64,000 nt of DNA from Candidatus Enterousia sp. (GTDB lineage: Bacteria; Pseudomonadota; Alphaproteobacteria; Rs-D84). How positions within the stretch are numbered: position 1 is the stretch's first letter; every line of letters begins with the position of its first letter. Location: NCBI GenBank assembly GCA_045613785.1, contig JAZLBQ010000026.1, positions 1 to 64,000 of the forward strand. The letters are read 5' to 3'. A program made the position numbers and the translations under genes. The notes under the pieces are model-generated. The model ran no database searches. It saw only the letters and a list, made by a program, of their open reading frames with translations, and had not been told where the DNA came from. Shown piece by piece: positions 1,914 through 35,570 of this stretch.

Positions 1914-2016
1914 AATAAAAGATAATGGCGTAGATATAAGTGAAAGAGTCAACGTAGTGTACTTAACGCTACATGAGTTGACACTCACGCTTATAGATAC
2001 GCCATTAGATTTTATT
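1914..2016. repeat. AGAT-mismatch palindromic element, copy 1 (3' of trxB)
   Basis: AATAAA-AGAT-AATGGCGT-AGAT-ATAAGTG..GTCAAC-GTAGTGTACTTAACGCTACATGA-GTTGAC..CGCTTAT-AGAT-ACGCCATT-AGAT-TTTATT nested inverted repeat. Confidence 0.85.
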
Positions 2017-2914
2017 ATAATTTGTTCAAGAATGCGACTGCATCCATACCCGCTGTGCAGCCTGTTCCGACAGCTGTTGCAATCTGCATTTTTATATTAC
2101 TGTGAACATCACCAGCAACAAAGATACCATCTGGTAAATTTTCTGGTGCCAAACGCCCCAACGAATCCCGCTTGATATCTTCGGACAAATAATCTGTGTT
2201 TGCCTCATGCCCGATGGCAACAAAGACCCCATCAACAACCATTTCATTGCCATCTGTTGTTGTTACAATCAGTTCACCATCATTAGAATCCGGCTTTGCG
2301 GCGATTTTTGCCAAGTCTGTATTAAACAAGCATTCAATATTTTCACGAGCCTCGACCCGTTCACGCAACACCGCCTCTGCCCTGGTAAACGCCCCCTTGC
2401 GATATACAATTTTAACAGTTTTTGCCAAATCAGCCAGATACAAAGCATCATTTAATGCACTGTTTCCGCCGCCTAAAACAATAACTGTCTTTCCGCTGTA
2501 AAAGAATCCATCACACGTCGCACAATAAGACACGCCACGCCCCATAAATTCACGAGCCCCTTCTATTTCCAGTTTTCTTGGGCTTGCTCCTGTTGCAACG
2601 ATGACTGTGCGACCTTGATATTCTGTTCCATTATCTGCAACAACAACAAATCCATTATTTGCATTACCAGAAACGCTTTTTGCAGATACAAATTCGACCT
2701 GTGCACCAAATGTTTCGCATTGATTTTTCATAAACTGTGCCAGTTCCAAACCACTACCTGCCCAACCTGGATAATTCTCCAAAACTGCGATACCTGCGGT
2801 CTGTCCACCCAAACGATCACCACCTAAAACGATAGTTTTTTTATTTGCACGTGCCGTATATAACGCCGCTGTCAACCCTGCGGGTCCAGACCCTAAAATA
2901 ATAACATCATACAT
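2015..2914 (-). CDS. trxB: thioredoxin-disulfide reductase
   Basis: MYDVIILGSGPAGLTAA FAD motif, CATCDG redox centre, GGGNSA NADPH motif. Start moved to ATG 2914, which follows an AAGGAAGG SD. Confidence 0.93.
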   Translation of the reverse strand: MYDVIILGSGPAGLTAALYTARANKKTIVLGGDRLGGQTAGIAVLENYPGWAGSGLELAQFMKNQCETFGAQVEFVSAKSVSGNANNGFVVVADNGTEYQGRTVIVATGASPRKLEIEGAREFMGRGVSYCATCDGFFYSGKTVIVLGGGNSALNDALYLADLAKTVKIVYRKGAFTRAEAVLRERVEARENIECLFNTDLAKIAAKPDSNDGELIVTTTDGNEMVVDGVFVAIGHEANTDYLSEDIKRDSLGRLAPENLPDGIFVAGDVHSNIKMQIATAVGTGCTAGMDAVAFLNKL

Positions 2915-3164
2915 AAGATACCTTCCTTTTGTTTTCCCCAGCATAACACAAGGCATAAATTCACGCAAACAAAAACAGCACAATGAAATTATTGCAAATA
3001 ACAACTAATTGTTTTATAATTAGCACTGAAATGTTTTTAAGTTTTACATTTTCATCATCATTTTCTTCATCCCCTTTTGGGGAATAAAATATTTGCAATT
3101 TTCATATAACATCATAATATCATAACTAAATATAAATTTATAACAAACCCAAGGAAAGACAACA

Positions 3165-4442
3165 ATGTTGGATATAAAATTTATTCGTGAAAACCCAGAC
3201 GCAATAAAAAAAGCCTGTGAATTAAAGGGTTTTGATGACCACACCGATGAAATTTTAGCACTGGACGCCCGTGTTCGTGAATTAAAGACAATCACCCAGT
3301 CCAAGACCGCAGAAAAGAATAAAATTACACGTGAAATTCCAACAGCAACGGACAAAGCCCCATTGATTGCACGTTCACGTGAAATAGGTGCAGAAATTGC
3401 GGCTGACCTGGATGAACTGGCCAACAAAGAGACACAATTAAACGACCTGATGCACCGTGTTCCACAAATTCCATCAGCTGACGCCCCTATTGGTCGTGAC
3501 GACAGTGAAAATATAGAAGTCCGCCGTGTTGGCACGCCACGTGAATTTGATTTTACCCCACGTCCACAGTGGGAATTGCTGGAAATGAACGGCTGGTGGA
3601 AACCAGAAAAGATTGCATCTATCTGTGGAACACGCACCTATGCCCTGTTTGGCGAAGCCGCAGAACTGGAATTGGCGATTCAAACCTATGTATTACAAAA
3701 ACTGATAGCCAAAGGTTTTACATTTGTAAACTGCCCATCGATTACAAAGCCACAAACAATCTTTAACGCAGGGCACTTTATGGGTGCGGACCAATCAGTT
3801 ATGGCAAACGACGTATTTATGCTGACAGACACTGATCGTTGCCTGGCTGGGACTGCTGAAATTATCCTAAATTCTCTGCACAGTGATGAAGTCTTAAATG
3901 AAAAAGACCTGCCAATCAAATACGCAGGATTTTCGCCATGCTTCCGCAAAGAAGCCGGTGCTGCTGGTCGTGACACCCGTGGAATCGTGCGTATTCACCA
4001 ATTTAACAAGGTTGAACAATACATCTATTGCACACCTGAACAATCAGACGAAATGCACGAACATTTGTTAAATAATTTATGTGAAGTCATGGCAGACCTG
4101 GAATTACCATACCGTGTAATTGCGGCCTGCACTGGCGACATGGGCTTTAACAAAATCAAGATGCACGACGTAGAAGCCTGGTTTCCAAGTGAAAACACAT
4201 ATCGTGAACTTGGTTCATGTTCATCGATTGGTCAATTCCAGGCTCGTCGCACAAACACACGCTATCGTGATAAAAATGGCAACATGCAGTTCTGTGCAAC
4301 CCTGAACAACACAGGTATTGCCCTGCCCCGTGCGATTGTGCCAGTAATTGAAAATCACCAAAACCCAGACGGTTCTGTAAACATACCAAAATGCTTACAA
4401 GCCTTGATGGGCGGTCGCACAAAAATTGGTGGCAAACACTAA
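3165..4442 (+). CDS. serS: serine--tRNA ligase
   Basis: MLDIKFIRENPD N-terminus, GTAE, FRKEAGAAGRDTRGIVRIHQFNKVE, ELGSCS, TLNNTG motifs. Confidence 0.96.
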   Translation: MLDIKFIRENPDAIKKACELKGFDDHTDEILALDARVRELKTITQSKTAEKNKITREIPTATDKAPLIARSREIGAEIAADLDELANKETQLNDLMHRVPQIPSADAPIGRDDSENIEVRRVGTPREFDFTPRPQWELLEMNGWWKPEKIASICGTRTYALFGEAAELELAIQTYVLQKLIAKGFTFVNCPSITKPQTIFNAGHFMGADQSVMANDVFMLTDTDRCLAGTAEIILNSLHSDEVLNEKDLPIKYAGFSPCFRKEAGAAGRDTRGIVRIHQFNKVEQYIYCTPEQSDEMHEHLLNNLCEVMADLELPYRVIAACTGDMGFNKIKMHDVEAWFPSENTYRELGSCSSIGQFQARRTNTRYRDKNGNMQFCATLNNTGIALPRAIVPVIENHQNPDGSVNIPKCLQALMGGRTKIGGKH

Positions 4443-4445
4443 ATT

Positions 4446-4475
4446 AAAAATCCCGCATTTTGCGGGATTTTTTTT
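4446..4475. terminator. bidirectional intrinsic terminator
   Basis: AAAAATCCCGCA-TTT-TGCGGGATTTTTTT between convergent serS and an ORFan. Confidence 0.85.
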
Positions 4476-4926
4476 ATCGTTGAAACATTTGTGCAACTTT
4501 TTTAAATGGACGCACCAGAACACTTGATTTTTGTAAATCTAGCAAGTTATTCAAACGCTTTGATTCTTCAATAATCTTCTTGGCCTGGCGTGCATTTTTA
4601 TCACCTGTAAACCAGTGATCAACATAAACAGAAAAATTATGAAACATAACATACAGTTCATGATCACAACTAGCACCTAAAATCCCTTCTACATCATCAA
4701 TTATTTTATCCGAAACAGATTTTTTACCAGCCTTATCTTTATAGGCCTCTAATGCAATACGTGGTCTTTTTATAATCAAGTCAATATTTTCCATTGATTT
4801 TTTTACATCTGCTTGGCTTTTTGGCAAAGAATGCTTTTTCAAAGAAATTTCCGCCAATTTTTTTAATGCAACAAAAGCTGACTTTACAGCCAAAAACACC
4901 TCTGCATCTGAATAACTATTAGTCAT
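4474..4926 (-). CDS. hypothetical protein (ends ...QMFQR)
   Basis: 150 aa ORF with AAGGAG SD. No recognisable motif. Confidence 0.75.
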   Translation of the reverse strand: MTNSYSDAEVFLAVKSAFVALKKLAEISLKKHSLPKSQADVKKSMENIDLIIKRPRIALEAYKDKAGKKSVSDKIIDDVEGILGASCDHELYVMFHNFSVYVDHWFTGDKNARQAKKIIEESKRLNNLLDLQKSSVLVRPFKKVAQMFQR

Positions 4927-4990
4927 TTAAAACTCCCTTTACTTTTGCTATTATTATAACACAAAAAAAATGCCCAATTGGGCATTTTTA

Positions 4991-5425
4991 TTATTTCTGA
5001 TTTACCTTTACTGCAAAACTTTTGCCCGTTCTAAACAAAAAGGTTAAATCTTTAAACAAATTTGTTGAGTTTTTATATTTAATTGCACGCAACATTTCTA
5101 ACAACGTTTCCTGTGCTCCTTTACGATAATAATCGTATTCACTGCCCAAATTTTGGATTGCATGCAAAACACGATTGTATATCAAATAGACAGAATTATC
5201 CAATGATGTTGGCATAAAAGCATCAGGCCAAATTTCAACTCCCATTTTCACACGATAATCATAGTCCGCATATTGCTTTGGGTTTTCAGCAATCTTTGAA
5301 ACCGCAGCGATTGCAGTCTTGATTCTTCCAAGTTCGATTTCATCTTTTGCTTTATTTTTACGTCTTTCCAAGAAAACAATAATTTCCTTAAAAAACTCTT
5401 TTAATGTTGCATCATAATCTATCAT
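4991..5425 (-). CDS. hypothetical protein (ends ...KVNQK)
   Basis: 144 aa ORF followed by a terminator-like hairpin (AAAATGCCCAATTGGGCATTTT). Confidence 0.75.
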   Translation of the reverse strand: MIDYDATLKEFFKEIIVFLERRKNKAKDEIELGRIKTAIAAVSKIAENPKQYADYDYRVKMGVEIWPDAFMPTSLDNSVYLIYNRVLHAIQNLGSEYDYYRKGAQETLLEMLRAIKYKNSTNLFKDLTFLFRTGKSFAVKVNQK

Positions 5426-5434
5426 TTTTTACCC

Positions 5435-6007: not shown

Positions 6008-6159
6008 TTTGCCTCCTTTTGTTATCTCTTTATAACACCCACACTTACAAATATAGACAAAACACAACAAATGTCAATATTTTCTCATAAAAAAGTTGAA
6101 AATTCATAATTTTAGTTATACCCTATACCTGATAAACAAAAATGCAAACAGGATAACAA

Positions 6160-14773: not shown

Positions 14774-15961
14774 TTATCTTTTCTTTTCTGGCAAAATCAA
14801 CAAACTAAACGCCCCGACAAAGACGGTTACAACCCACACAGCCGACGTTGTTCCGAACAAAGAAATCACAACTGCCGCCAACATCGGTGCAATAACATTT
14901 GGCAAATTAGAACTTGTTCTAAACACGCCATAATACTTGGCCTGCTGTGCCCGTCCCATACCGTCAAAGAACAACAAATCATGAACAGATTCCATCAATG
15001 CCCCCGACACCTGCCATGCAACAAATATAACCAATAACGGCACACCTGTAACGATTGTTGCAGCCGCTGACAATAATGCAAAAGAACCAAATCCCAGCAT
15101 CAGCCAAATTGTTTTACCAAAACGTCTAACTGCCCGCCCCATAAATTCACTAAGCAACAAATAAGGCACAATCCCCAGCGTTAAAACCCAACCCAACACG
15201 TCCTTATCAAATCCATTTTCAACAACCAAAATCGGCACATACAAGACACGCATTGCACGCAAAGAATAATACCCAAAGTTTACCAAATAAGCCCGCACCA
15301 TACCTGGCACCCTGAAAAATTGAACAGTATTTTTCCACAACGCCCGGAAAGTCTTGCGTGGATTGACCGGCTTTATTTGTTTATCTTCCTGAACGATTTT
15401 GAAATATTTGAACACCGACCAAGCAATCAGATAAATCACAGCAGATGCAAAAAACGCCGCCCGATTACCAAACAAATCTGCAATCCAAACAGCAAGCATT
15501 GGTGCGAACAAGGCCCCCACATTCAACCATAAATGATACCGTGAATTTAACCTAGCCATACCGATATTTTTTGAAAAATCAGACATAAACAACGGAATCA
15601 ACATACTTGACAATGTGATTGCAATCCCGGTTGTATAGTCCAGAATAACAAAAGTCCGTGGCAATATTGAAAAGCTCATCATCGCATAGCAAATTGCCAT
15701 CATCAGCAAAGCAAAAAAGAACACCCGAACCTTGGAAAAAGCCCGCAAGATTTCATTTGCGAACAGCCCTACAACAAAACAGAACACAGAATAAATAGCA
15801 ACATAAATTCCGACAATTGCAGAAGACTTAAAAATCTCTAATAAAACCAGTGAATAAACAGCATTGTAAATTCCATCTGCAAACCCTGTAAACAAACCCA
15901 GATTTGCAAACGAAAAGCCACTAACACTTTTTCGAACTGAAATATATTTATCCCTTGCCAT
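14774..15961 (-). CDS. MFS transporter
   Basis: 395 aa with about 12 hydrophobic segments in two halves and an MFS-like GR..RRFGK loop. Confidence 0.75.
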   Translation of the reverse strand: MARDKYISVRKSVSGFSFANLGLFTGFADGIYNAVYSLVLLEIFKSSAIVGIYVAIYSVFCFVVGLFANEILRAFSKVRVFFFALLMMAICYAMMSFSILPRTFVILDYTTGIAITLSSMLIPLFMSDFSKNIGMARLNSRYHLWLNVGALFAPMLAVWIADLFGNRAAFFASAVIYLIAWSVFKYFKIVQEDKQIKPVNPRKTFRALWKNTVQFFRVPGMVRAYLVNFGYYSLRAMRVLYVPILVVENGFDKDVLGWVLTLGIVPYLLLSEFMGRAVRRFGKTIWLMLGFGSFALLSAAATIVTGVPLLVIFVAWQVSGALMESVHDLLFFDGMGRAQQAKYYGVFRTSSNLPNVIAPMLAAVVISLFGTTSAVWVVTVFVGAFSLLILPEKKR

Positions 15962-16022
15962 ATTGATAAATTATAGCATAAAAAAAACAAATCAGCAAAC
16001 GCAAGGAATCAAAATTTTAATG

Positions 16023-16126
16023 AAATTAAATAGAATAATTTAGATACGGACAGTGCCGTCCCCGCTGTGTCCAGAAGCGACATAAGGGAACGGCACCGTT
16101 CGCAGATGAATTATTATATTTAATTT
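16023..16126. repeat. AGAT-mismatch palindromic element, copy 2 (3' of yebC; supplies its stop codon)
   Basis: AAATTAAATAGAATAATTT-AGAT-ACGGACAGTGCCGTCCC..GGGAACGGCACCGTTCGC-AGAT-GAATTATTATATTTAATTT. Near-identical to the copies at 28713 and 35363. Confidence 0.92.
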
Positions 16127-16836
16127 GCGGCAGTAAACACCTTCTGCACATCATCATTCGCATCCAATGCATCAACTAACTTTTCCAATTTAGCATACGC
16201 TTCGTCGTCCAAGTCCATTGGCATATTTGGAAGCCATGTCAATTCTGCCTGTTCTGGTTCACCCAATTTATCAGCCAAGATTTTTTGTGCATTGATAAAA
16301 TCTTCTGGTTTTGTTGTGATGATAAAACCTTCTTCGGATGTTTCCAGGTTATCAGCATTAGCCTCCATAATGATTTCCATCATTTCATCTTCAGTTTTGC
16401 CGATTGATGCAGGATACATAATCTGACCGGCACGTGTAAACATAAAGACAACACTGCCTTCTTCACCCATATTTCCGCCATTTTTACCAAAGATGTTACG
16501 AATTTCTGGCACTGTGCGACGTGGGTTATCGGTCAAGGCCTCTACAATAACAGGCACTGCCCCTGGTCCATAACCTTCATATCTTACTGCTTCATAGTTT
16601 TCGGTATTTGACCCCGATGCTTTATCGATTGCACGTTTGATATTATCGTTCGGCATAGAATTCTTGCGTGCTGTCAAGATTGCCAAACGCAGGCGTGGAT
16701 TATTATCAGGGTTTTTATCACCCAGCTTTGCCGCCATTGTAATTTCACGTGCTAATTTTGTAAACAAACCACTTCGTGCTGCGTCTGCTGCACCTTTTTT
16801 GTGTTGGATATTATGCCATTTACTATGTCCACTCAT
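16120..16836 (-). CDS. yebC: YebC/PmpR family protein
   Basis: MSGHSKWHNIQHKKG, NPRLRLAI, YEGYGPG, LTDNPRRT, DDVQKVF. Confidence 0.96.
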   Translation of the reverse strand: MSGHSKWHNIQHKKGAADAARSGLFTKLAREITMAAKLGDKNPDNNPRLRLAILTARKNSMPNDNIKRAIDKASGSNTENYEAVRYEGYGPGAVPVIVEALTDNPRRTVPEIRNIFGKNGGNMGEEGSVVFMFTRAGQIMYPASIGKTEDEMMEIIMEANADNLETSEEGFIITTKPEDFINAQKILADKLGEPEQAELTWLPNMPMDLDDEAYAKLEKLVDALDANDDVQKVFTAAN

Positions 16837-16886
16837 ATTTGACCTTTTTATTTATTTAGGTTAAAATCACCCCAAAAGGATAGCAA

Positions 16887-17480
16887 ATGATTGGTAAATT
16901 GCAAGGCATAGTTGACTATATTGGCGACGGATATGTAATTTTATTGACAGGGGGTGTCGGCTACAAGGTTTATACTGCCGAATACCTGCCGCACAAAAGC
17001 ACGGTAGAGCTGTGGATAGAAACAATTGTCCGAGAAGATTCCATACGCCTATTTGGTTTTACCAGTCTATCTGCACAAAACCTGTTTAATATGCTAACGG
17101 GGGTTTCTGGTGTTGGTCCAAAGGTTGCTTTGGCAATACTTGGGACAATAAATTCCGACACATTGATGTCAGCGATTGCGACAGGCGACGCAAAAACGAT
17201 TGCTACTGCCCCAGGGGTTGGCAAAAAGATGGCAGAAAAAATCATTGTTGAATTAAAGAACAAAGTAGGTGGCATATCTGCGACATTATTTGCCCCAGAA
17301 GTTGACACAACTATGACAGCATCGTCTGCCCTACCAGATTTATTGATGGCATTAGAATCCTTGGGCTATCGCCGTCTAGACATTATTGAAATGGCACAAA
17401 AGTTGGTGAATCAAAACCCAACCGCAGACGTATCTAAACTGGTTCCCCTGGCATTAAAAGAAATCAGCAAAGGCAAATAA
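16887..17480 (+). CDS. ruvA: Holliday junction branch migration protein RuvA
   Basis: MIGKLQG, GGVGYKV, VREDSIRLFGF, VSGVGPKVAL, PGVGKKMAEKIIVELK, ALESLGY. Confidence 0.95.
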   Translation: MIGKLQGIVDYIGDGYVILLTGGVGYKVYTAEYLPHKSTVELWIETIVREDSIRLFGFTSLSAQNLFNMLTGVSGVGPKVALAILGTINSDTLMSAIATGDAKTIATAPGVGKKMAEKIIVELKNKVGGISATLFAPEVDTTMTASSALPDLLMALESLGYRRLDIIEMAQKLVNQNPTADVSKLVPLALKEISKGK

Positions 17481-17484
17481 AACA

Positions 17485-18810
17485 ATGAACAATAACGACA
17501 CAATTTTTGCACTTTCATCTGGGCACGGCAAATCAGGCGTTGCGGTTATTCGCATATCTGGCGACAAACTGCACGACGTATTTTCCACTTTTATAAACAA
17601 GCCTGAATTTACCCCACGCCAGGCATATTTTTGCAATCTTCACGACAATAATAATGACCTGCTGGATCAATGCCTGGCAATATATTTTCCTGCTCCACAC
17701 AGTTTCACAGGCACTGACGTTATTGAATTACACACACACGGTGCACCTGCAACAATCAATGCGGTATTTGAATACCTAAAGACATTAGGCATGCGTCTTG
17801 CGACCCCTGGGGAATTTTCACGTCGTGCATTTTATAATAACAAAATGGACTTAGCAGATGTTGACGGTCTGGCGGCATTACTTGACGCCCAAACAGACCA
17901 GCAACGCAAACACGCCCTTAAATCAATGCTGGGTTCAGACAGCCAGATTTACAACACCTGGCGTAATCAGATGGTTGAAATATCGGCTTATGCTGCTGCT
18001 ATCCTTGATTACAGTCCTGATGATTTACCAGAAAACATATCTGAAACAATAAAATCCAGAACATCAAAATTATACATTGAAATAACCAATGCATTAAAAA
18101 AATACAAAACATCACGTGCAATCCGTGGCGGTATAAATATTGCATTAGTTGGCGAAACAAACGTTGGTAAATCATCAATATTTAATTACATTGTTGGTTC
18201 TAATCGCGCGATTGTATCTGATATTGCTGGCACTACACGTGATGTCATATCTGCAAATCTTGACATTGACGGATACCTGGTAAATTTATCAGACACGGCA
18301 GGTCTGCGTGAAACAGACGATATAATTGAATCAATCGGGATACAGCGAACAAAATCAGAAATCAAAAACGCAGATATTGTCTTGCACGTTTACACGCCGG
18401 ACACTGTTCCACTGTTACGCATAGATGAATCCCGCATTGGTCCAAATCCAAACATAAACATTGTGAACAAGTGCGACACAATTCCTCAATCAGAATACGA
18501 CTATGAATTTGGTCTGCCCATATCTGCCAAGACAGGTATTGGAATGGATGATTTAATGGAAACAATCCGCAATAAAATTCACGAGATATTTGACACCACA
18601 GAAAACAGCCTTTGCATAAATGCCCGCACCAAAGAATTATTAGAAACTGCCCAATCCGAATTAGGCAACGCACTAAACGCTGGCGAAAATTACGACATAT
18701 TTGCCGAACACACTCGCCGTTCTGCGGACGCAATTGGCAAGATTCTGGGCACAATCACGGCAAGCGAGGTTCTAGACAAAACCTTTGGGCAACTATGCCT
18801 AGGCAAATAA
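17485..18810 (+). CDS. mnmE: tRNA modification GTPase MnmE/TrmE
   Basis: DTIFALSSG..GVAVIRISG, SFTGTD, PGEFSRRAF, GETNVGKSS, AGTTRD, DTAGLRE, C-terminal CLGK. Confidence 0.95.
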   Translation: MNNNDTIFALSSGHGKSGVAVIRISGDKLHDVFSTFINKPEFTPRQAYFCNLHDNNNDLLDQCLAIYFPAPHSFTGTDVIELHTHGAPATINAVFEYLKTLGMRLATPGEFSRRAFYNNKMDLADVDGLAALLDAQTDQQRKHALKSMLGSDSQIYNTWRNQMVEISAYAAAILDYSPDDLPENISETIKSRTSKLYIEITNALKKYKTSRAIRGGINIALVGETNVGKSSIFNYIVGSNRAIVSDIAGTTRDVISANLDIDGYLVNLSDTAGLRETDDIIESIGIQRTKSEIKNADIVLHVYTPDTVPLLRIDESRIGPNPNINIVNKCDTIPQSEYDYEFGLPISAKTGIGMDDLMETIRNKIHEIFDTTENSLCINARTKELLETAQSELGNALNAGENYDIFAEHTRRSADAIGKILGTITASEVLDKTFGQLCLGK

Positions 18811-18830
18811 CTCCCCAATCAGCATAGATA

Positions 18831-19026
18831 AAATTAAATAGAATAGTCTAGAAAAAAACAATCGGGAATCGTAGTGCACAAACGCTACATACGATTCCCG
18901 ATTTAAATTATAATTTATTGAAAATAAAAGATAATAGTATAGATACGGGTGGGGACGATATCGTAGTGCTCAAACGCTACATAAGATATCCCCCCCACCC
19001 ATAGATATGCCATCAGATTTTATTTT
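18831..19026. repeat. two tandem palindromic elements, copies 3 and 4 (18831-18916, 18921-19026)
   Basis: Both carry the apical CGTAGTGC(A/T)CAAACGCTACATA core inside different stems (ATCGGGAATC/GATTCCCGAT and GGGTGGGG/CCCCACCC). The second has two AGAT/AGAT mismatches like copy 1. Confidence 0.85.
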
Positions 19027-20606
19027 TATTCGTGGCGGTCAGGATACATTCCATCTATCAGATTCTGACGAACCACGTGATGTTTAACCTTTTGCGTGCC
19101 AGTCAAAGGCAAATCCTCGGTTGTCATCGCAAAGTGTGTAACCCACTTATAACTGGCAACTTTTTTATTTGCTGCTGCAATTTCCGCCCCCAGTTTTTCG
19201 ATTGTCATACCTGGTTCAACACTGAACACACCATATGAAACCGTTTTATCTTTGACCTTGTGTTCAAAGACAGCAACGTTTTTAACACCAGGGATTGTGA
19301 TAAACATACCTTCTAATTCATCTGGATAAACGTTTTTACCACTGTCTAAAACGATAACCTGCTTTTTGCGACCAGCAAAATGCAATTCACCGTTTTTGTC
19401 CATTGTAACCATATCACCAGTATTAAAGAAGCCACGTTCATCAAAGATTTCTTTATTGGCTTCTTCGTTATTCAAGTATCCACCGAACACCTGATGTCCA
19501 CGCAACCACAGAACACCAACGCCATCTTCGTTTTTATCACGAATTTCGCATTCATTATTCAGTGTTGGTCCACCAAAAGCGAACGGCAAACGTTTTTTAG
19601 TTGGCTTTGAAATACAGATTGGTCCAACAGTTTCGGTCAAACCATACCCCTGGATAAATGTCAACCCCAAACGTTCATAGAAAGTTTCAACCTCTGGCTT
19701 AGTTGCTGCACCACCTGCAATCAACAAGCGTGCACGTCCACCAAAGACATCCAAGATTGGTTTTTGGACTTTACGCACCAGCGCACCCAAACCAATTTTC
19801 TGCAATGTCTTGCCGTATTTCAATACAAAAGACACCAACCCCCATTTTTTCTGTGCTTTGACGTTATCAATAATTTTGTTCCGGAAAACTTCCCACAATC
19901 TTGGCACAGCTGGGATAACTTGTGGTCGGAATTTTTTAAAGTCCGCCATAATTTCCTTTGGATTGATTGTTGGCTGCAACAACACCCCTGCCCCATAGTG
20001 CAAAGTTGCCAAGATTTCGACTGCGAAACCGAACACGTGATACATTGGCAAAAATCCATACAGATAATCACCTGGTTTAATCCATTCAGCCATTGATTCC
20101 AATGAATTTGTGCATTCAACGATATTAAAGTGTGTCAACGGCACAACCTTTGGCTGCCCTGTTGAGCCTGATGTAAAAGACATTGTTGCAATATCCAAAG
20201 ATTCTACTGCAGCAGGCTTTAAATCAGGGTTTATATCGCCATCTTTCTTGGTAATTTCATAGAAAGTAAATTTATCTGTTTTGTAAACAAAAGACTTTTC
20301 TGCACACACGAACTTACAGTCTGTGATTGTTGCCATATTGTCATATTCAAATGGGGTCAGATTTGTATCCAACAACAATACTGTCCCCCCCAGATACCAA
20401 ATTGCGAATAACGATATTGGGAATTCTGGGATATTATGCGACAAGATACCAATTACATCGCCTTTTTTAACACCTGCTTTATCAAGTGAAGCGGCTCTAG
20501 CCTTTACCAAACCAATGAAGTCTTTATACGTAACCCCTTCACGCACCAGATATAAATTATCTGGATATGTCTGTGCTGTTTTTTCCAGCATTTGATACAT
20601 ATTCAT
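19026..20606 (-). CDS. long-chain acyl-CoA synthetase (AMP-binding enzyme)
   Basis: FTSGSTGQPK, QGYGLTET, FNTGD, GRKK..SGKNVYPDELE. Start moved to MNMYQML at 20606. Confidence 0.88.
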   Translation of the reverse strand: MNMYQMLEKTAQTYPDNLYLVREGVTYKDFIGLVKARAASLDKAGVKKGDVIGILSHNIPEFPISLFAIWYLGGTVLLLDTNLTPFEYDNMATITDCKFVCAEKSFVYKTDKFTFYEITKKDGDINPDLKPAAVESLDIATMSFTSGSTGQPKVVPLTHFNIVECTNSLESMAEWIKPGDYLYGFLPMYHVFGFAVEILATLHYGAGVLLQPTINPKEIMADFKKFRPQVIPAVPRLWEVFRNKIIDNVKAQKKWGLVSFVLKYGKTLQKIGLGALVRKVQKPILDVFGGRARLLIAGGAATKPEVETFYERLGLTFIQGYGLTETVGPICISKPTKKRLPFAFGGPTLNNECEIRDKNEDGVGVLWLRGHQVFGGYLNNEEANKEIFDERGFFNTGDMVTMDKNGELHFAGRKKQVIVLDSGKNVYPDELEGMFITIPGVKNVAVFEHKVKDKTVSYGVFSVEPGMTIEKLGAEIAAANKKVASYKWVTHFAMTTEDLPLTGTQKVKHHVVRQNLIDGMYPDRHE

Positions 20607-20676: not shown

Positions 20677-21447
20677 ATGAAAATTTTGACATTAAATATA
20701 AACTCTATCCGTGCCCACATTGAAAGTTTCATTGACATTTTGCGTCGTGGTGAATACGACACAATCCTTGTTCAGGAATTAAAGGTTGAAACTGCAAACT
20801 TTCCACATGCCCTATTTGATGAATATGGATATAACGTGAAAGTTTTTGGTCAAAAGTCCTGGAATGGCGTTGCAACATTTTCCAAATTCTCCATCGAAGA
20901 CGCTATCCTTGGCATGCCAAATTACGCAGATCCTAACGCCCGTTTTCTAGAATGTGTTGTTGACGGTCACGTTCGCCTGATAAACACATACATGCCAAAC
21001 GGGGACACAGTTGAATCGCCCAAATTTCCATACAAACTAGAATGGATGCGTGCCTTTACAGATTACATATCCCAATATTTGGACAGTCCAGAACCTGTAA
21101 TCATTGGTGGTGATTTCAACGTTGCAATCCAGGATCGAGATATCTGGAAGCCCAAAAATTACGAAGGCATTGCAATTTCTGCACCTGCCGCACGCAGCAT
21201 TATGAACCAATGGCTAGACGCAGGCTGGACAGACGCCTGGCGTTCTCTGCACCCAGACGAAATAGATTATACCTGGTATGGCTATCGTGGCCGTGACACA
21301 GTCGGCAACAAACAAGGCCTTCGCCTGGACTACTTTTTGTGCAACAAAACTGCTACAAAAATGATAAAGAATTGTGAAATAGACCTTGAACCACGCCTGG
21401 CCACAAAACCAACAGACCACTGTGGTTTAATGCTTGAAATAAAATAA
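20677..21447 (+). CDS. xth: exodeoxyribonuclease III
   Basis: MKILTLNINSIRA, QELK, GQKSWNGVA, YMPNG, GGDFN, GLRLDY, TDHC. Confidence 0.93.
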   Translation: MKILTLNINSIRAHIESFIDILRRGEYDTILVQELKVETANFPHALFDEYGYNVKVFGQKSWNGVATFSKFSIEDAILGMPNYADPNARFLECVVDGHVRLINTYMPNGDTVESPKFPYKLEWMRAFTDYISQYLDSPEPVIIGGDFNVAIQDRDIWKPKNYEGIAISAPAARSIMNQWLDAGWTDAWRSLHPDEIDYTWYGYRGRDTVGNKQGLRLDYFLCNKTATKMIKNCEIDLEPRLATKPTDHCGLMLEIK

Positions 21448-21479
21448 AATAAAATAAAATAAAATAAAATAAAATAAAA
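21440..21479. repeat. (TAAAA)8 simple sequence repeat
   Basis: Perfect pentanucleotide tract overlapping the xth stop codon. Confidence 0.9.
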
Positions 21480-21527
21480 CAGCACAACAAAGACCTAAAT
21501 AGAATGGTAAAACCCCAACCATTCTAT

Positions 21528-24041
21528 TTAATCTTTTGCTCTTTTCAAATCATCAAACGCCTGATATTTCTTATCGCTTGTTTCATAGTATTCATATCCT
21601 GCATTTCCTGCCGAATACATATTAAACAACTCTGTTGTTTTATTGACTGCGGCATCTATCATTTGTTGTGTTTGCTCTTTATCATAATTGATAACACGTG
21701 CATCACCATTTTTTAACTGCAAGAACTTCATCACAGGTGTTTTAGACAATTCTGTTGTTTCGATTGGAAATCCATCTGTTTGCAGGATATAAGCCTCTAA
21801 TGGTAATTGTGGCATATTGCCCTGCTCTAATTGACTTTTTGATGGTGCAGAACCTGTTTTAATATCCATCACCACCCCGTCCCAGAATCTATCTGCCTTG
21901 GCACGAACTGTTCGTCCAGCAATTTTTACACTACCCTCTTTTTCAATTCCTGGGTTTTGAATATCTTTCAGTGCCTCGGACACCACGGGTGCTATTTCAT
22001 AAAACCGCTTTCGCCAGAAATGAAACAACACACTATTTGTTCCCAGCAATTCACGAGCCTTATTCTCCATTTGAGCCGCCAACACATCAGGATTCCAATC
22101 GGTTGCATCTTCGATAACCTTGTGAACCAGATTTCCAAAATCACGTCCATCGACCCCGACCCAATAATCGTCCAATACCCTCAGTCTTAAAATATGCTTT
22201 ACATAAAAAGCGTATGGATTATGAATTAAATATTCCAGTTCTGTCACATATACATCAGACCAATCTGCTGGTGGTGTTGGCACAGAATAATCCAAACTCT
22301 GCATTTTCACATTATCTAATTTTGCCACGGCCTGTGTAATATCTTTATTTCTGTCAAACTTTCCTTTGGCCACAATCACACGTGAAATAAATCTAGACTC
22401 GGCGGTTTGCACCCCACCTGAAACAGTGCTTCGCAGCCACCAAACCTGTGAACCACAGGACAGATTCATAAAATCCAACGACTGCAACGAAACCTTGCGG
22501 TCAGGCGACGGCAATCCAATTTTTTCAGCCAAATGCCAGGGCAGCCAGGCATTTTCATAACCACGTGCCGGAAACATTCCATCATTTAGTCCTGTTAAAA
22601 TCACAACATCTGCGGTCTGCATTCTGGATTCGATTGTTCCCAGCACAACGACCTGTGCTTTATCGTCCATAACCCCACGCACAGACACATTTGATATGGC
22701 ATCTAAAACAAAAGCACGTGCATCAACCAGACTCAACTGCACACCAATTGCAGCCAACGCATCTGAAACCTTTTTAATTTCAATCCATATCTGCACAGAT
22801 GTTGCATCGTCCACCACAAAGTTCGGTGTAAATTCCGCCTGATGTTTTTGAACAATCAAAGAAATCGTATCAAATAAATTGTGTTTGCATTCTGCACAAA
22901 TTTCATCAAATTCATTTGAAGACGTTTCAATCCATCCATCAATCATATTCAGCAACGCCCGCCCTGTTGCGGTCATTGTTCCTGGGACACCACCTGAAAA
23001 ATCAGCCTTTATTCCCCGACTTGCCAATTCTGTTGCAATACGTTGATTTCCGGCTGCGTCAGGTGTTATAACTAAAACTGTTTTATTTTCATCTAATGCC
23101 CTTTGTGCAATTTCTGCAACGGCTGCAGCCTCGACTGATTCACGTGAACATTCGACCAAATGACAGTGCGACAAATCTACATCACTATTCATCACTGAAA
23201 CATCATTTCCAAAAGCCTTATTCATAAAATCAATTGCAGATGGTCCAACATCAATCGGCACAACATCATCAGCCTCTAAGCCCAGTCTTGATAAAAATTT
23301 ATATTCAGAATTATATGGATTTGTATTTAATTGAAAATCCTGAACACGCCCCGATATTTTTCCAGACAAAATTATTCGTCCATGTGGTTGCTTGGCAATT
23401 TCAACCATCAAATCAGCTGTCGCTGGAACACTAGCAGTTGACGCACAAACAACAACCAATTTATATCGATTCAAATAATCTTTCCAACGACGAATATCCC
23501 TATTTTTAGCCATTGCAGATGTCAATCTTCCGCCTGCATAATCATTCATAAAAGTTGACATTATGCTTAAAAATCTGGCCTTATTTTGAAAATGTCGTGC
23601 ATACTTTTCATCAACCAATCCCGCCCAGTCAACAGTTGCAACATCAATTCCTTCATTTTCCAGATAATCGCACATACGCACTAAATCTCGTGCCAATGTC
23701 AAAGCAGTTGTCCAGTTTCCAACACTTGCATCTGCGACCAGCAATCTAGCCATTAAAACAATACGTTCAGTATTTGAAATAATATCCCTAGAACGAATAT
23801 CTTCCCAGTCTTCATCATTTGGGTTATCAACCCCTTCCCCCAGCGCAACCAACTGTGGCAAAATCACAGCACCACCAGACTTTTGCACAATCATTTTTTC
23901 GACTGTTCGCACAGCACGACGACTGGGCAAGAAAATCAGCATATCTGCCAACGCCACCCCAGAAGCACTGATAAGTTTCCACAACGCCTCTGAAATCTTG
24001 GCAGGATTAGTTGCGTAAAAAACGCTATGATTATTTGACAC
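21528..24041 (-). CDS. addB: AddB-like double-strand break repair protein (C-terminal PD-(D/E)XK nuclease)
   Basis: IFLPSRRAVR N-terminus, LGTIESRMQ..VILTGLNDG, NPYAFY..ILRLR, RAKADR..MDIKTG, QLPLEA, as in alphaproteobacterial AddB. Confidence 0.8.
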   Translation of the reverse strand: MSNNHSVFYATNPAKISEALWKLISASGVALADMLIFLPSRRAVRTVEKMIVQKSGGAVILPQLVALGEGVDNPNDEDWEDIRSRDIISNTERIVLMARLLVADASVGNWTTALTLARDLVRMCDYLENEGIDVATVDWAGLVDEKYARHFQNKARFLSIMSTFMNDYAGGRLTSAMAKNRDIRRWKDYLNRYKLVVVCASTASVPATADLMVEIAKQPHGRIILSGKISGRVQDFQLNTNPYNSEYKFLSRLGLEADDVVPIDVGPSAIDFMNKAFGNDVSVMNSDVDLSHCHLVECSRESVEAAAVAEIAQRALDENKTVLVITPDAAGNQRIATELASRGIKADFSGGVPGTMTATGRALLNMIDGWIETSSNEFDEICAECKHNLFDTISLIVQKHQAEFTPNFVVDDATSVQIWIEIKKVSDALAAIGVQLSLVDARAFVLDAISNVSVRGVMDDKAQVVVLGTIESRMQTADVVILTGLNDGMFPARGYENAWLPWHLAEKIGLPSPDRKVSLQSLDFMNLSCGSQVWWLRSTVSGGVQTAESRFISRVIVAKGKFDRNKDITQAVAKLDNVKMQSLDYSVPTPPADWSDVYVTELEYLIHNPYAFYVKHILRLRVLDDYWVGVDGRDFGNLVHKVIEDATDWNPDVLAAQMENKARELLGTNSVLFHFWRKRFYEIAPVVSEALKDIQNPGIEKEGSVKIAGRTVRAKADRFWDGVVMDIKTGSAPSKSQLEQGNMPQLPLEAYILQTDGFPIETTELSKTPVMKFLQLKNGDARVINYDKEQTQQMIDAAVNKTTELFNMYSAGNAGYEYYETSDKKYQAFDDLKRAKD

Positions 24042-28712: not shown

Positions 28713-28816
28713 AAATTAAATAGAATGATTTAGATGCGGACAGTGCCGTCCCCGCAGTGTCCACAAGCGACATAAGGGAACGGCACCGTTCGCAGATGAA
28801 TTATTATATTTAATTT
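28713..28816. repeat. AGAT-mismatch palindromic element, copy 5
   Basis: Near-identical to 16023-16126. Abuts the stop of the 80 aa Cys-rich ORF. Confidence 0.92.
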
Positions 28817-29057
28817 ACCGCAATGGCGGGAAACAATCACCCCCCACTTCCGGACAACAGTTAAATCCTAAATCAGCCATGTCGGTATATACTTCACCTG
28901 GACAACAACCATATTTATCTGGTTGTGCACCATAATCACAGACCGGCATATCACTAGGACGCATTGCATCACGATTAGCCCCTGTTAAAACACCAAAAGC
29001 AAAGCCTACAAAAAAAGCAATTACAACTGAAACTATTGAACAGATGTTTTTCTTCAT
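28815..29057 (-). CDS. small exported Cys-rich protein
   Basis: N-terminal hydrophobic helix, then CDYGAQPDKYGCCPGE...FNCCPEVGGDCFPP. Confidence 0.75.
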   Translation of the reverse strand: MKKNICSIVSVVIAFFVGFAFGVLTGANRDAMRPSDMPVCDYGAQPDKYGCCPGEVYTDMADLGFNCCPEVGGDCFPPLR

Positions 29058-29078: not shown

Positions 29079-29666
29079 TTACTGTTGTTTAAATGGTGGG
29101 AAACATTCATTGCCACCGTCTTTTGGGCAACATGCAAAAACGGCATTTCCCAAATCTCTGAATATTTCATCGCCACAGCAACCAAATTTATTTGGCTTTG
29201 AACCATCTGCACAAAGCCCTGCATCTAAATTGGCTAATTCCTTTTCAACTTCGGCCTGAATCTTGGCATTTTCTGCTGCGATTTTTTCTTCTTCAGTCAT
29301 CGTATCTTCTGGAGCTACTTCTTCTGCACTTGCAACTTCTTCGGCCTTAACCTCTTCTTCTGTGGTTGAATTTTCTGGATTTTCTTCAACCTCTTGTGCT
29401 TTTTCCTCTGTTTCAATCACAACCATAGACGTCGCACTAGAACGTCTTGATGCAGCAACCTTGGCACATTTGCGACGATAATCCGCCTTTAACTTGGTTA
29501 GTTCTGCAATTATTTCATCATCAGGATCCACAATCTGCACCAATTCAGTAATTTTGTTTTGAATATCAACACAAGTCAAACGCTGAGAAACATTAACTGT
29601 TGACACATCATCAGCCCATGCATTTATTGCAAAAATACAGCCGAACAAGACAATTAGTTTTTTCAT
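29079..29666 (-). CDS. secreted protein with acidic linker and C-terminal Cys-rich domain
   Basis: Signal peptide (AWA-DD), Glu-rich linker, CADGSKPNKFGCCGDE...FACCPKDGGNECFPP. Confidence 0.78.
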   Translation of the reverse strand: MKKLIVLFGCIFAINAWADDVSTVNVSQRLTCVDIQNKITELVQIVDPDDEIIAELTKLKADYRRKCAKVAASRRSSATSMVVIETEEKAQEVEENPENSTTEEEVKAEEVASAEEVAPEDTMTEEEKIAAENAKIQAEVEKELANLDAGLCADGSKPNKFGCCGDEIFRDLGNAVFACCPKDGGNECFPPFKQQ

Positions 29667-29674
29667 TTTTTTTC

Positions 29675-30211: not shown

Positions 30212-30239
30212 TTAACTCTCTCCCTTAGTTTTATTATTG

Positions 30240-32871: not shown

Positions 32872-32883
32872 CAGTTTTTATCC

Positions 32884-34212
32884 TTATTCACTCAAAAAAT
32901 CACGCAACGCATCACCAATCAGTTCATTTGCCTGTCCAATTTGAGCAGGTCCATCAACAATTGAAATCACACGTGGCGACATAAAGACAACCAGTTCTGC
33001 AAAAGGCGACACCAATGTTTCAGGTGTTGTCACAAACGAATGCGTTGGAATACCGATAATCACATAGTTATCCCCAACACTTGTTGGCAAATTGAATGAG
33101 CTCAATTCTCCCTGACTTGTTCGCAACACGATTTTTGCATCAATCTTATCACGACCACCAAAGTCCCCATATTTTCCGGTTGCCCCAACAATTAAATCTG
33201 TTTCCAATCGTTCTTCACGACCACATTGTCCGATATCAAATCTTGATTGCCAACCATTTGGTATAGCAAACGTTCCTTGAGAAATTAAAACAACATTTGC
33301 CTGTTGTGCTAAAAATTCCTGCAAAGTTTTTGTATTGATTTCAGGACCTACGACCAACGCACGTCCAACGACACCTGGCACAGACATTTTAATATTCTTT
33401 TCACCGAACGCTGGCAATAAATTCATCCAAACAATTGGGTTATCTGTTCGTGGATAGACACGATAAACATCGATATCCCACGCCAACATATATTTCTTTC
33501 CAGAAACATCTGCGATAATCCTTGCGACCTCACGTTCAGTCTGATAATTTCCTTCAAAGACCAACGTTTTATCTTGCCAATCAACAATTAGATTACGCAT
33601 ATCTGCACCATGCATTGCGTCCAGCAACGCCATAATAATCGTTTCATCTTGTGGCATTTTAATCAGCCACTTTCCACGATGCATCAAATGCAATTCGCCA
33701 TTTTGTGCATCATAGGAATAATAAGCACGTCCCATTTTTGCCATCAATTCAACAGCATCAGACAACGCCCCCGATGAAATAGTCCCTGAAATTTTTTCAA
33801 ATAACTGTTCATCTTCTACAACTGCAATATCTGTTCCGTCCAGCAATTTATCCAACGCCCGTTTAACAGTCAAATCCTTGAATTCATAGTCTGAAACTTT
33901 CAACTCTGGCAGTTCATCACCCACCCCCAGACGTATCATTTCAATTTTTTCAGCAGGCACAACCGAAACCACACTTTGATTATTCCAATCAACTTCACAC
34001 CGCTTTGGCAGCTCTACCGAAAAGCGTCGTGCAGTATCTGTTGTCAAGGCTGCTTTTTTTGGAAAGATTGGCACAGAATTTTCATCGATTACCAACTCGT
34101 CAATAACAGTGATATTATCAATAATCTGCACAGGCTTGTCTTCTTGAACACAGGCCGCCATTGCGAAACAACAAATCACCCAAGATAATTTTTTTAATGC
34201 TCTCATACCCAC
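32884..34212 (-). CDS. outer-membrane lipoprotein, possibly secretin-like
   Basis: Lipobox AMAAC, N0/STN-like segment (FKDLTVKRALDKLL), C-terminal ELVVFMSPRVI reminiscent of secretins. Confidence 0.5.
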   Translation of the reverse strand: MGMRALKKLSWVICCFAMAACVQEDKPVQIIDNITVIDELVIDENSVPIFPKKAALTTDTARRFSVELPKRCEVDWNNQSVVSVVPAEKIEMIRLGVGDELPELKVSDYEFKDLTVKRALDKLLDGTDIAVVEDEQLFEKISGTISSGALSDAVELMAKMGRAYYSYDAQNGELHLMHRGKWLIKMPQDETIIMALLDAMHGADMRNLIVDWQDKTLVFEGNYQTEREVARIIADVSGKKYMLAWDIDVYRVYPRTDNPIVWMNLLPAFGEKNIKMSVPGVVGRALVVGPEINTKTLQEFLAQQANVVLISQGTFAIPNGWQSRFDIGQCGREERLETDLIVGATGKYGDFGGRDKIDAKIVLRTSQGELSSFNLPTSVGDNYVIIGIPTHSFVTTPETLVSPFAELVVFMSPRVISIVDGPAQIGQANELIGDALRDFLSE

Positions 34213-34232
34213 TTCCTTTCGATTAGACCCTA

Positions 34233-34556
34233 TCAGATATTCATAACCCTTTCAAATTCTTCCAACGTCATTTCATGTATAGGCTTTTGCGTTGGTGTTA
34301 CTAAATCACGCACACGTTCAAATTGTGCTGCAAAGCGATTTATCAGCCCGACAATTTCTGGGGTCAGATTTTTATTCTGTGCAATCAAACGTCGTCCATA
34401 CTCTACAACATACTCTAACACATCAGCCATATAAAATCGCCCGACATAGTTTTCCATTGCAATCCCACCCTTTTGGACACAGATTGCAGACATCATCATT
34501 GCGGTCTGATTATAGTAATTTGCCAACTTGATAAACTGCTGAACAGTCACAGCCAT
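34233..34556 (-). CDS. hypothetical protein
   Basis: Start moved to MAVTVQQF, which follows an AAGGA SD. Confidence 0.65.
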   Translation of the reverse strand: MAVTVQQFIKLANYYNQTAMMMSAICVQKGGIAMENYVGRFYMADVLEYVVEYGRRLIAQNKNLTPEIVGLINRFAAQFERVRDLVTPTQKPIHEMTLEEFERVMNI

Positions 34557-34632
34557 ACTATTGTCCTTTCTCTCTTTTTTTACATTATAAAAACTATTGC
34601 CCCCATAACGCAATTAAATTATAATATAAACC

Positions 34633-35019
34633 ATGAGAATAAAAATTCTAAGCATCTTTTTATGCATTGCTTTAACTTCATGTGCCTCTGTAAACCAAGG
34701 CAGTATTGACGACGCAACTGTTTTAAATTGGGAAAATGAAGCGGTTACTACCGAACAATTCGTCCGTGACCACAAATCATGCCTGGGAATAGACCGCCCG
34801 TCATACCAGCCACGCTCACGCATTGCGAAATTACTGGCCCCTAACCAGTCTGCAATGATGCCTGATTGGGACGGTCTGTGGGTAACCTTTCAATCAAACG
34901 AATATCGTGACGTTGGGCAACGCAGCCTGATGAGTGTCCCCCGCAACAGTTCATCACGCACCGTTGGTGCATACCGCCGTTGTATGTTCCGCCGTGGATA
35001 TTTATTACGTGCAATGTAA
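34633..35019 (+). CDS. lipoprotein of unknown function
   Basis: Lipobox LTSC, RDHKSC ... YRRCMFRRGY Cys pair. Confidence 0.75.
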   Translation: MRIKILSIFLCIALTSCASVNQGSIDDATVLNWENEAVTTEQFVRDHKSCLGIDRPSYQPRSRIAKLLAPNQSAMMPDWDGLWVTFQSNEYRDVGQRSLMSVPRNSSSRTVGAYRRCMFRRGYLLRAM

Positions 35020-35056
35020 AAAAAACAATCCCGAACAGGGATTTTTTTATTCTCAA

Positions 35057-35217
35057 AAACAAACGCAAAATAGATGATGAATTTCTGGTGCCCGCAGGGT
35101 GCCAGAAAATTATCAGATATTGCGTATTGTGCAAATTTTACGATGGGCGTGTATTGAACATACATAACCTGAGTAAAATTAAACAAACGCAAAATAGATG
35201 GTGAATTTCTGGTGCCC
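35057..35217. repeat. 37 bp direct repeat including the tRNA-Thr 3' end, flanking a related palindromic module
   Basis: AAACAAACGCAAAATAGATG(A/G)TGAATTTCTGGTGCCC at 35057-35093 and 35181-35217. Confidence 0.85.
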
Positions 35218-35283
35218 TAAGCAAGAATCGGACTTGCGACTCGTCCTTACCAAGGACGTGTTTTACCACTAGACTATTAGGGC
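35210..35283 (-). tRNA. tRNA-Thr(GGT)
   Basis: GCCCTAATAGTCTAGTGGTAAAACACGTCCTTGGTAAGGACG...TTAGGGCACCA cloverleaf. Confidence 0.93.
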
Positions 35284-35362
35284 GACAAAACTTTTTTTCA
35301 ATTATACGAAGCCACAAGAAAAAATCAAGGATAAAAAATAAAGAATCCTAAACGTTTAAATG

Positions 35363-35570
35363 AAATTAAATAGAATGATTTAGATGCGGACAGTGCCGTC
35401 CCCACAGTGTCCAGAAGCGACATAAGGGAACGGCCCGTTCGCAGATGAATTATCAACAAATAAATGAAATTAAATAGAATAGTTTAGATATGTGAAAATC
35501 CGTTGGCGTAATGTATTGAACATACATGAGCCAACGGATTTACGCATAGATGAATTATTATATTTAATTT
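35363..35570. repeat. two tandem palindromic elements, copies 6 and 7 (35363-35453, 35467-35570)
   Basis: Same AAATTAAATAGAAT..TAGAT left end. The second has an AATCCGTTGGC/GCCAACGGATT stem and a GTAATGTATTGAACATACATGA core. Confidence 0.88.

Follow-up and report, generated by a model that had tools for sequence, protein, structure and literature searches.

A lineage-specific family of hairpin repeats docked at stop codons in Candidatus Enterousia

The window and its palindromes

The DNA considered here is a stretch of 64,000 nt from Candidatus Enterousia sp. (contig JAZLBQ010000026.1), referred to throughout as the window, and window coordinates are those of this whole stretch. Enterousia, of the uncultured order Rs-D84, carries a genome of ~0.75-1.0 Mb (PMC12306168). 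An earlier note on the window had drawn attention to seven copies, at five loci, of a dispersed palindrome lying against the stop codons of minus-strand genes, and all seven were recovered at those places, on the plus strand, by a covariance model of the family (R1, 37.6-104.6 bits). The copies, genes that they abut and two related fragments are given below, where the stop offset is the distance of the stop codon from the element end, negative values lying inside the element and ORF standing for open reading frame.

1914..2016, plus strand: full copy docked on trxB, outer arms with two AGAT/AGAT motifs; R1 95.2 bits, stop offset -3
2015-3004, minus strand: trxB, the gene docked by copy 1914..2016
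16023..16126, plus strand: full copy docked on yebC; R1 97.5 bits, TAA 7 nt inside the element (offset -7)
16120-16836, minus strand: yebC, the gene docked by copy 16023..16126
18831..18916, plus strand: degenerate gene-distal copy of a tandem pair, with TAGAA and no AGAT pair; R1 37.6 bits
18921..19026, plus strand: full gene-proximal copy docked on the acyl-CoA synthetase gene; R1 85.0 bits, offset 0
21497..21530, plus strand: mini-hairpin of outer-arm sequence alone, perfectly paired, docked on the addB stop; R1 17.7 bits
28713..28816, plus strand: full copy docked on the stop of a small Cys-rich ORF, 28815-29057 (minus strand); R1 104.6 bits
35055..35175, plus strand: probable decayed remnant, an AGAT-facing-AGAT hairpin and a fragment resembling the 35467 copy's apical core
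35363..35453, plus strand: gene-distal copy of a tandem pair, right arm short by its last ~12 nt; R1 59.7 bits
35467..35570, plus strand: full gene-proximal copy docked on ORF 35570-36127 (minus strand); R1 100.5 bits, offset -1

Each of the seven copies folds into a long hairpin (z-scores -5.9 to -11.5), and six of them match, on the plus strand, the pattern TAGAT-N17-CRYWRTG-N9-12-ACATRAG-N15-18-AGAT, for which 0 matches were expected based on 100 shuffles. The five full-length copies also scored with R1 on the minus strand; as these scores reached only about half of those on the plus strand, the single orientation that had been claimed for the copies is unambiguous. The docking at minus-strand stops (at trxB, yebC with its TAA inside the element, the acyl-CoA synthetase gene and ORF 35570-36127), the AGAT facing AGAT, the apical core and the lack of the AGAT pair in the 18831 copy were likewise as the note had described them. 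Other claims stood in part: of three copies thought near-identical, those at 16023 and 28713 share 96% identity, but the incomplete copy at 35363 reaches only 84-86%; the stems, thought to differ completely while remaining paired, are paired and covary but share a loose common pattern; and the two docked genes taken for ORFans, although without a Pfam or NCBIfam match, have relatives in other Enterousia loci. Between the convergent mnmE and acyl-CoA synthetase genes, the tandem copies at 18831-18916 and 18921-19026 are the only strong hairpins seen, and ORF 28815-29057 terminates inside the copy at 28713-28816, with tRNA-Gly and tRNA-Tyr downstream.

A family of Enterousia and its close relatives

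A species-representative genome collection was scanned with the geometry pattern, and at least 119 stretches matched; among the matches listed, to which all locus counts here refer, at least 118 loci from 60 genomes carry the family. The 60 source genomes are labelled Candidatus Enterousia, Alphaproteobacteria bacterium or uncultured Rickettsiales, and derive from animal and human guts. A pattern match in an Aigarchaeota genome (L040; L numbers denote sampled loci) was dropped as a chance event, the covariance model giving no match there. The loci, which were selected for the presence of an element and total ~0.9 Mb, contain 127 pattern copies, making 133 with the six in the window, and to these R1 added 23 full-length copies in the loci along with a set of half copies. 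The unit length of ~104 nt was evident from the information content, which falls sharply 18 nt to the left of TAGAT and 19-20 nt to the right of AGAT. The window DNA itself is 88.6-92.5% identical to loci of genome JAZTYU01. The palindromes constitute a lineage-specific family of Candidatus Enterousia and close relatives, and the further copies, covariation and presence/absence differences that the earlier note proposed to look for were all found.

The note had also allowed that the elements might belong to a family already in Rfam. At gathering scores, Rfam 15 identified five tRNAs in the whole window and nothing at the elements, while E-value scans of two copies produced weak hairpin noise only (up to 18.6 bits), and a blastn search of plasmids and phages with a consensus-like copy had no match. 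Repeats or transposons go unmentioned in the excerpted portion of the Enterousia paper (PMC12306168), and our literature search turned up no description of this palindrome family, which does not in itself establish its absence from print.

Docking at stop codons

In 104 of the 133 pattern copies, the distance from the element end to the stop codon of an ORF falls in the range -13 to +8 nt. This codon is TAA in 101 of the 104 (TGA in two, TAG in one), compared to 48 of 62 window genes (Fisher p = 4e-5). The right-hand ORF is encoded opposite to the element in 121 copies and on its strand in two, ten copies having none, and thus the element plus strand is antisense to the docked gene. Most of the non-docked copies are ~104-110 nt off, behind another copy, and the 23 copies found only by the model comprised 14 that are docked (-7 to +1), seven distal array members, one left unassigned and one with an inverted inner module (L013). 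The left neighbour can be on either strand (66 plus, 42 minus) and at a variable distance, and it converges on the element in 66 of 133 copies. No gene is interrupted by any of the 133 copies; the element contributes no more than a gene's final 1-4 codons and its stop.

The docked copies (n = 112) fell into 29 gene families that recur across species and, since the loci were chosen for having an element, it is this recurrence of sites that is informative and not the rates of occupancy. Named families include trxB (14 copies), yebC (8), efp, clpB, a PilN-like secretin, addB, fabF, dnaN and secB, as well as leuS, ftsK, rpsK, dnaA, thrS, murG, rpmA and mltG, and several have no family match. Copies are also present behind rpsM and rpsK (L022) and between rpoA and rplQ (L039), showing that the element occurs inside a normally co-transcribed operon.

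Several observations at individual genes should be recorded. In several species outer-arm sequence encodes the final residues of TrxB (NKL or NKI) and supplies its stop (window 2015-2030; L011, L020, L083, L097, L099 and L108), and the window TrxB keeps element-encoded end residues with a different element subfamily behind them. The copy with an inverted inner module (L013, 5152-5259, at yebC) has arms in the usual orientation relative to the gene and an inner stem and apex that are inverted, the result expected if the segment between the arms had flipped. Genes that are often element-docked encode small Cys-rich proteins of a lineage-specific family, which have a signal-like N-terminus and end in, for example, CFPP (window 28815-29057 and 29079-29666; L004, L067, L074, L089, L105 and L113). 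Lastly, aspS lies on the same 8-kb stretch as the ORF that the window has at 35570-36127 in three other species (L114, L110 and L069), whereas in the window it adjoins the trxB element (1-1825 versus 35467-36655), a rearrangement with its breakpoint at an element.

Hairpin structure and strand asymmetry

Alignment of 127 distinct copies (A1) allowed a 43-pair hairpin to be tested against shuffles and slid controls. The hairpin covaries: 90.1% of its cells are paired versus 73.0% in shuffles, a level reached by 0 of 500, and 35-47% in slid controls, and changes on both sides were found in 33 of the 43 pairs. Its outer arms are A/T-rich; it further has an internal loop of tandem G.A (AGAT facing AGAT), a 17-bp stem that varies and, at the apex, a conserved hairpin, whose helix, GTGTA/TACAT, has a G.U closing pair (the window variant exchanges A-U for C-G) and whose GTGTA...TACA core is retained even by the copies found only with the model.

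The two strands of the element are not equivalent. With RNA parameters the plus strand is the more stably folded one in 121 of 127 copies (mean -48.1 vs -37.8 kcal/mol), as it is in 118 of 127 with DNA parameters, and the tandem G.A and conserved G.U pairs are found on this strand only. It is antisense to the docked gene and is neither the mRNA strand nor the lagging-strand template. Wobbles in the variable stem have no strand bias (51 G.T vs 52 A.C). The A/T-rich arms yield U-rich tails in both directions, with the G+C-rich stem ~20 nt from the U-rich tail.

Just outside the hairpin, on its left flank, a conserved C-rich box (CCCAACCCCTTGCnnnGGGG, with a variant that ends in GTGATTAGCG) occurs in 28 of 129 copies (e.g., L103, L081, L035 and L025), often preceded by a half copy, and a REP-like CCCCTTGCnnnGGGG box (REP, repetitive extragenic palindromic sequence) lies outside the hairpin in 28 of 129 copies. 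In the loci the C-rich box is confined to element flanks (13 exact matches in 12 loci), and in the window it is not above chance. The idea that a TTGC box and a TAnAAT hexamer form a promoter was rejected based on their spacer of 14-17 nt, the presence of the box in only 28 of 129 copies and a scan that produced nothing above chance.

Orientation and replication

The third-codon-position G-C skew (GC3 skew) was determined on the element plus strand for the 68 loci with at least 1.5 kb of coding sequence per strand, about a third of the coding sequence in the loci lying opposite the docked-gene strand. It was -0.346 for genes on the docked strand and -0.255 for those on the other, and its strand-neutral component was negative, i.e., the element plus strand is C-rich, in 67 of the 68 loci; the whole window also has negative skew. 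Because of this near-uniform sign, the docked genes can be recognised as leading-strand genes. The sole exception, L026, carries phage capsid and capsid-assembly genes and is probably a prophage. The earlier note had asked whether orientation follows the replichore or the upstream gene, and it tracks both the docked gene and the direction of replication.

Turnover, arrays and insertion traces

Near-identical inner stems (at least 15 of 17 positions matching in the left inner stem) were shared by 13 of 76 pairs of copies from the same genome at different genes, by 19 of 260 pairs from the same gene in different genomes and by 3.7% of other pairs. Inner stems are closer among the copies of one genome than among copies occupying one gene in different genomes, i.e., the occupants of these sites are renewed per genome. 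The yebC site provides an example: the window has one copy of one subfamily there, L015 has two copies of another with identical flanks, and the stop offset at this gene differs between species (-7, -6, -2, 0 and +4). That sites are shared while their occupants change is one of three observations that go beyond the earlier note, the others being that orientation tracks replication and that the gene-facing strand is antisense to the better-folding one.

Where copies stand in arrays, the gene-proximal copy scored higher than the distal one in all 15 arrays with both scores (the count omits four arrays in which a score was not listed and another truncated by the end of its locus), and the distal copies are shortened at their gene-facing end. 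The window copies at 35363..35453 and 35467..35570 are joined by a 13-nt linker that recurs between different genes, as in L112, where it lies at another gene. Recombination between copies is documented by chimeras (e.g., L100 and L107). A flanking repeat of at least 2 nt was found at 6 of 127 copies, compared to ~15 expected, and the target duplications that the earlier note suggested looking for are therefore lacking.

The two fragments in the window also bear on turnover. The element is present in full at addB in five other species, but the window addB has only the mini-hairpin at 21497-21530, which may be the footprint of a deletion or excision; directly adjoining it (21436-21479) is an (AAAAT)n microsatellite with some nine units. 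At 35055-35140 R1 gave a weak extra match (28 bits, E = 0.0003). A 37-nt direct repeat there (35057-35093 and 35181-35217, 97% identical) duplicates the 3' end of tRNA-Thr (35210-35283, minus strand) together with the sequence that follows, a pattern that integration at a tRNA gene would leave, and an AGAT-facing-AGAT hairpin and a fragment resembling the element apex lie between the repeats.

The 3'-end slot and terminators

Orthologous gene ends of the 29 families (n = 167) were classified, with a classifier that is imperfect in that two known copies (family F20) were misassigned, as having the element (116), a canonical short terminator (21) or neither (30). A canonical terminator in the gene sense follows the docked element in only 13 of 101 cases, and of 53 convergent junctions that have an element, 42 are free of canonical terminators on both strands. 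In a scan of window 15900-19100, the single stretch covered, neither of the two element loci yielded a terminator-like or promoter-like call. Canonical bidirectional terminators do exist in the window, as short hairpins (A-tract/GGGG-loop-CCCC/T-tract) that begin within a few bases of stop codons.

Window 4447, 4963, 10803, 46124, 46177, 48083, 48132, 58000 and 63194: A-tract/T-tract terminator hairpins

Other features of the window

On the minus strand, two tandem paralogous ORFs (55296-56279 and 56288-57292) have several blocks of 76-86% identity ~990 nt apart; they contain G-rich coding repeats and neither has a Pfam match. A Fic-domain protein is encoded at 53575-54672, and the product of 60031-62460 is a type IV secretion system ATPase that resembles VirB4/TrbE.

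Comparison with known repeat systems

One close likeness is to REPINs, hairpins built from REP doublets in Pseudomonas and E. coli, and their RAYT transposases. REPINs are hairpins of ~89 bp flanked by A or T runs, whose excision leaves perfect palindromes (PMC3337134), and the Enterousia family resembles them as an extragenic hairpin repeat of ~90-100 nt with A and T runs at its flanks, as a persistent, mostly vertically inherited population within a genome, in its perfect-palindrome footprints and in the lack of target duplication. In addition, copies are more alike within a genome (13 of 76 pairs against a background of 3.7%). It differs in that its arms, judged by eye, are not self-palindromic REP units, except for ACGG..CCGT in one subfamily, that no RAYT gene was seen among the ORFs searched and no inverted pair around a gene in any locus, and that it is strictly stop-docked, in one orientation and limited to leading-strand genes. 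The REPs of E. coli, singly or in bacterial interspersed mosaic elements (BIMEs), likewise are palindromes at gene ends and between cistrons, and when they lie within 15 nt of a stop they cause ribosomes to stall and reduce translation (PMC12306157, citing Liang, Rudd and Deutscher 2015). However, only ~11% of E. coli REPs lie that near a stop (PMC12306157), whereas 104 of 133 Enterousia pattern copies do so, most others lying behind another copy. Moreover, at ~104 nt, with a conserved apical hairpin and G.A loops, the Enterousia element is 3-4 times longer than a REP (20-40 nt), and its copies are co-oriented within each locus instead of alternating as in BIMEs.

Transposition of the IS200/IS605 group uses single strands at the lagging-strand template (PMC5027513, PMC6006769). 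As in IS608 of that group, the Enterousia family is strand-specific, sits beside a short fixed sequence (TAA on the gene side in 101 of 104), makes no target duplication, has an orientation that follows the skew (67 of 68 loci) and has mismatched hairpins of the sort such elements recognise. Unlike them, it forms one long hairpin and not two subterminal ones, its more stable strand is not on the lagging-strand template, and no TnpA was seen in the ~0.9 Mb. Rickettsia palindromic elements (RPEs), 100-150 bp repeats for which no transposase is known and whose alphaproteobacterial host has a reduced genome (PMC10969869), are similar in size, palindromy and type of host. RPEs encode peptide, often in frame within genes (PMC10969869), but docked Enterousia copies begin at the stop or at most 13 nt ahead of it; as no copy lies in frame inside a gene, membership of the RPEs is unsupported. 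From another dispersed repeat resembling a terminator hairpin (PMC10969869), the element differs in lineage, sequence, its greater length and its sites within operons. Compared to an intrinsic terminator, it holds the terminator slot, yet its G+C-rich stem is ~20 nt from the tail and there are copies in a ribosomal operon. Classical MITEs (transposable elements of the miniature inverted-repeat kind) have terminal inverted repeats with target-site duplication, and such duplication is lacking here. By these defining features, the Enterousia family is not a member of the REPINs, REPs, RPEs or classical MITEs. An integron attC origin was rejected by eye, as the docked genes are housekeeping genes and no attC-like end motifs were seen.

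Interpretation and rival explanations

We consider the family to be, with roughly even odds (about 0.5), a REP/REPIN-like non-autonomous repeat that is strand-specifically renewed and occupies the 3'-end hairpin slot of genes. A single-strand process that recognises hairpins, of the IS200/IS605 or REP-RAYT type, would deposit new copies 3' of a TAA and on one template strand, with gene conversion between copies as a possible fallback route of spread. Single-strand insertion 3' of TAA on the lagging-strand template would give rise to stop docking, a single orientation, restriction to leading-strand genes and the lack of duplication. Once installed, the element would be transcribed at the end of the gene's mRNA, at the place taken in sister species by an ordinary short terminator hairpin, and may have a REP-like effect there as a 3'-end barrier or attenuator, possibly by stalling the terminating ribosome, and not as a full terminator. 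Such an RNA role is suggested by the element's position and, by analogy, by what is reported of E. coli REPs that lie within 15 nt of a stop. The earlier note had envisaged a non-autonomous element or a structure-recognised 3'-end or single-strand signal with its enzyme outside the window, and this general reading holds and is partly supported.

A number of results weigh against the REP/REPIN-like reading. The enzyme is absent from the window, as the note supposed: Pfam found no transposase, RAYT, reverse transcriptase, integrase or HUH protein among 57 window ORFs. It likewise found no transposase, integrase, reverse transcriptase or HUH protein among 150 ORFs from rare clusters (of one or two members) of the loci, and E. 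coli RayT had no phmmer match at E<=10 among 5433 ORFs, in a sample of ~0.9 Mb in which most clusters with at least three members lay outside the Pfam scan. No locus has an inverted pair of copies around a gene, all copies being co-oriented within a locus. Shortened distal copies with linkers are not predicted by simple re-insertion at TAA, and the identity of the better-folding strand fits neither an mRNA role nor an IS608-like top strand neatly. G.T and A.C being equal in the variable stem, RNA-type selection on that stem is not visible. Moreover, the sharing of sites across species was seen only in loci selected for an element, and the invariant columns of the alignment are partly forced by the search pattern.

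It is possible, though we think it rather unlikely, that the hairpin is instead a host-functional RNA of the 3' untranslated region or intercistronic space, inherited vertically at fixed gene ends and homogenised by gene conversion, with no transposition. The occupation of the same 29 gene families across 60 genomes and the copies within the rpsM-rpsK and rpoA-rplQ operon are what such an RNA would lead one to expect, the chimeras L100 and L107 and the inverted module of L013 attest to recombination between copies, and the common outer arms could provide the homology. The decayed distal copies of 15 out of 15 arrays, the varying stop offsets at yebC and the alternation of element and canonical terminator at orthologous ends are less easily accommodated, the stem has no excess of G.U over A.C, and the leading-strand restriction (67 of 68 loci) has no obvious reason at the RNA level. 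A bidirectional intrinsic terminator or insulator, which would end the docked transcript and with its stronger strand halt convergent transcription before the gene, seems to us distinctly improbable. It would account for the canonical terminator found in the same slot at 21 of 51 element-less orthologous ends, for the 42 of 53 element-bearing convergent junctions without a canonical terminator on either strand, for the U-rich tails that the A/T-rich arms produce in both directions and for a convergent left neighbour at 66 of 133 copies. Nevertheless, copies follow rpsM, rpsK and rpoA in a ribosomal operon that is normally co-transcribed, the G+C-rich stem is ~20 nt removed from the U-rich tail, no terminator was called at the two element loci of window 15900-19100, and termination has no need of a conserved apex and fixed mismatches.

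The better folding of the plus strand in 121 of 127 copies, and the restriction of the conserved G.U and tandem G.A to it, could mean that this strand is the active one, as a small antisense RNA or as an RNA or single-strand DNA signal bound by a protein at the G.A motifs and apex, and in 28 of 129 copies a C-rich TTGC box lies 14-17 nt upstream of a TAnAAT-like hexamer. We regard this as very doubtful, as that spacer is short for sigma-70, the box is missing from most copies, including all those in the window, no promoter-like site was called at the two loci of window 15900-19100, and there is no Rfam family match. Orientation that tracks the skew-defined replication strand in 67 of 68 loci is also what a replication-polar DNA signal like KOPS or Chi would show, read on one strand with its position at gene ends being secondary; given the exact docking at stop codons, the turnover of sequence subfamilies and a 104-nt palindrome unlike the known polar motifs, which are short, this is a long shot. 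Hardly credible is a classical MITE moved by a DDE transposase via terminal inverted repeats: the ~104-nt length, inverted-repeat ends and dispersed copies are MITE-like, but target-site duplication is lacking, the mismatches are conserved and strand-specific, there is a single orientation, and no transposase was seen in the window ORFs or the 150 rare-cluster ORFs.

A bolder extension of the REP/REPIN-like reading, which we hold to be speculative and on balance unlikely, is that a domesticated, replication-coupled single-strand system writes hairpins 3' of TAA at leading-strand genes only, and that the installed hairpins serve as 3'-end control modules. The writer would then be a new type of HUH enzyme or host replication and repair alone, recognition would take place at the tandem G.A loops and conserved apex, and with repeated insertion a layered record would build up behind each gene.

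Significance

Dispersed palindromes of the REP, REPIN and RPE types are common, and the reasons for their positions are still debated. In Enterousia, a family in genomes of less than 1 Mb follows an unusually clean rule: a TAA stop, one orientation, leading-strand genes, and shared sites with renewed occupants. Such a clean rule of placement makes it testable how targets are chosen, whether replication or translation termination guides the choice, and whether such repeats take over from ordinary terminators. The annotation of Enterousia genomes should mask or model the element, and the family accounts for rearrangement breakpoints and for short element-derived C-termini, e.g., the end of TrxB, in this lineage.

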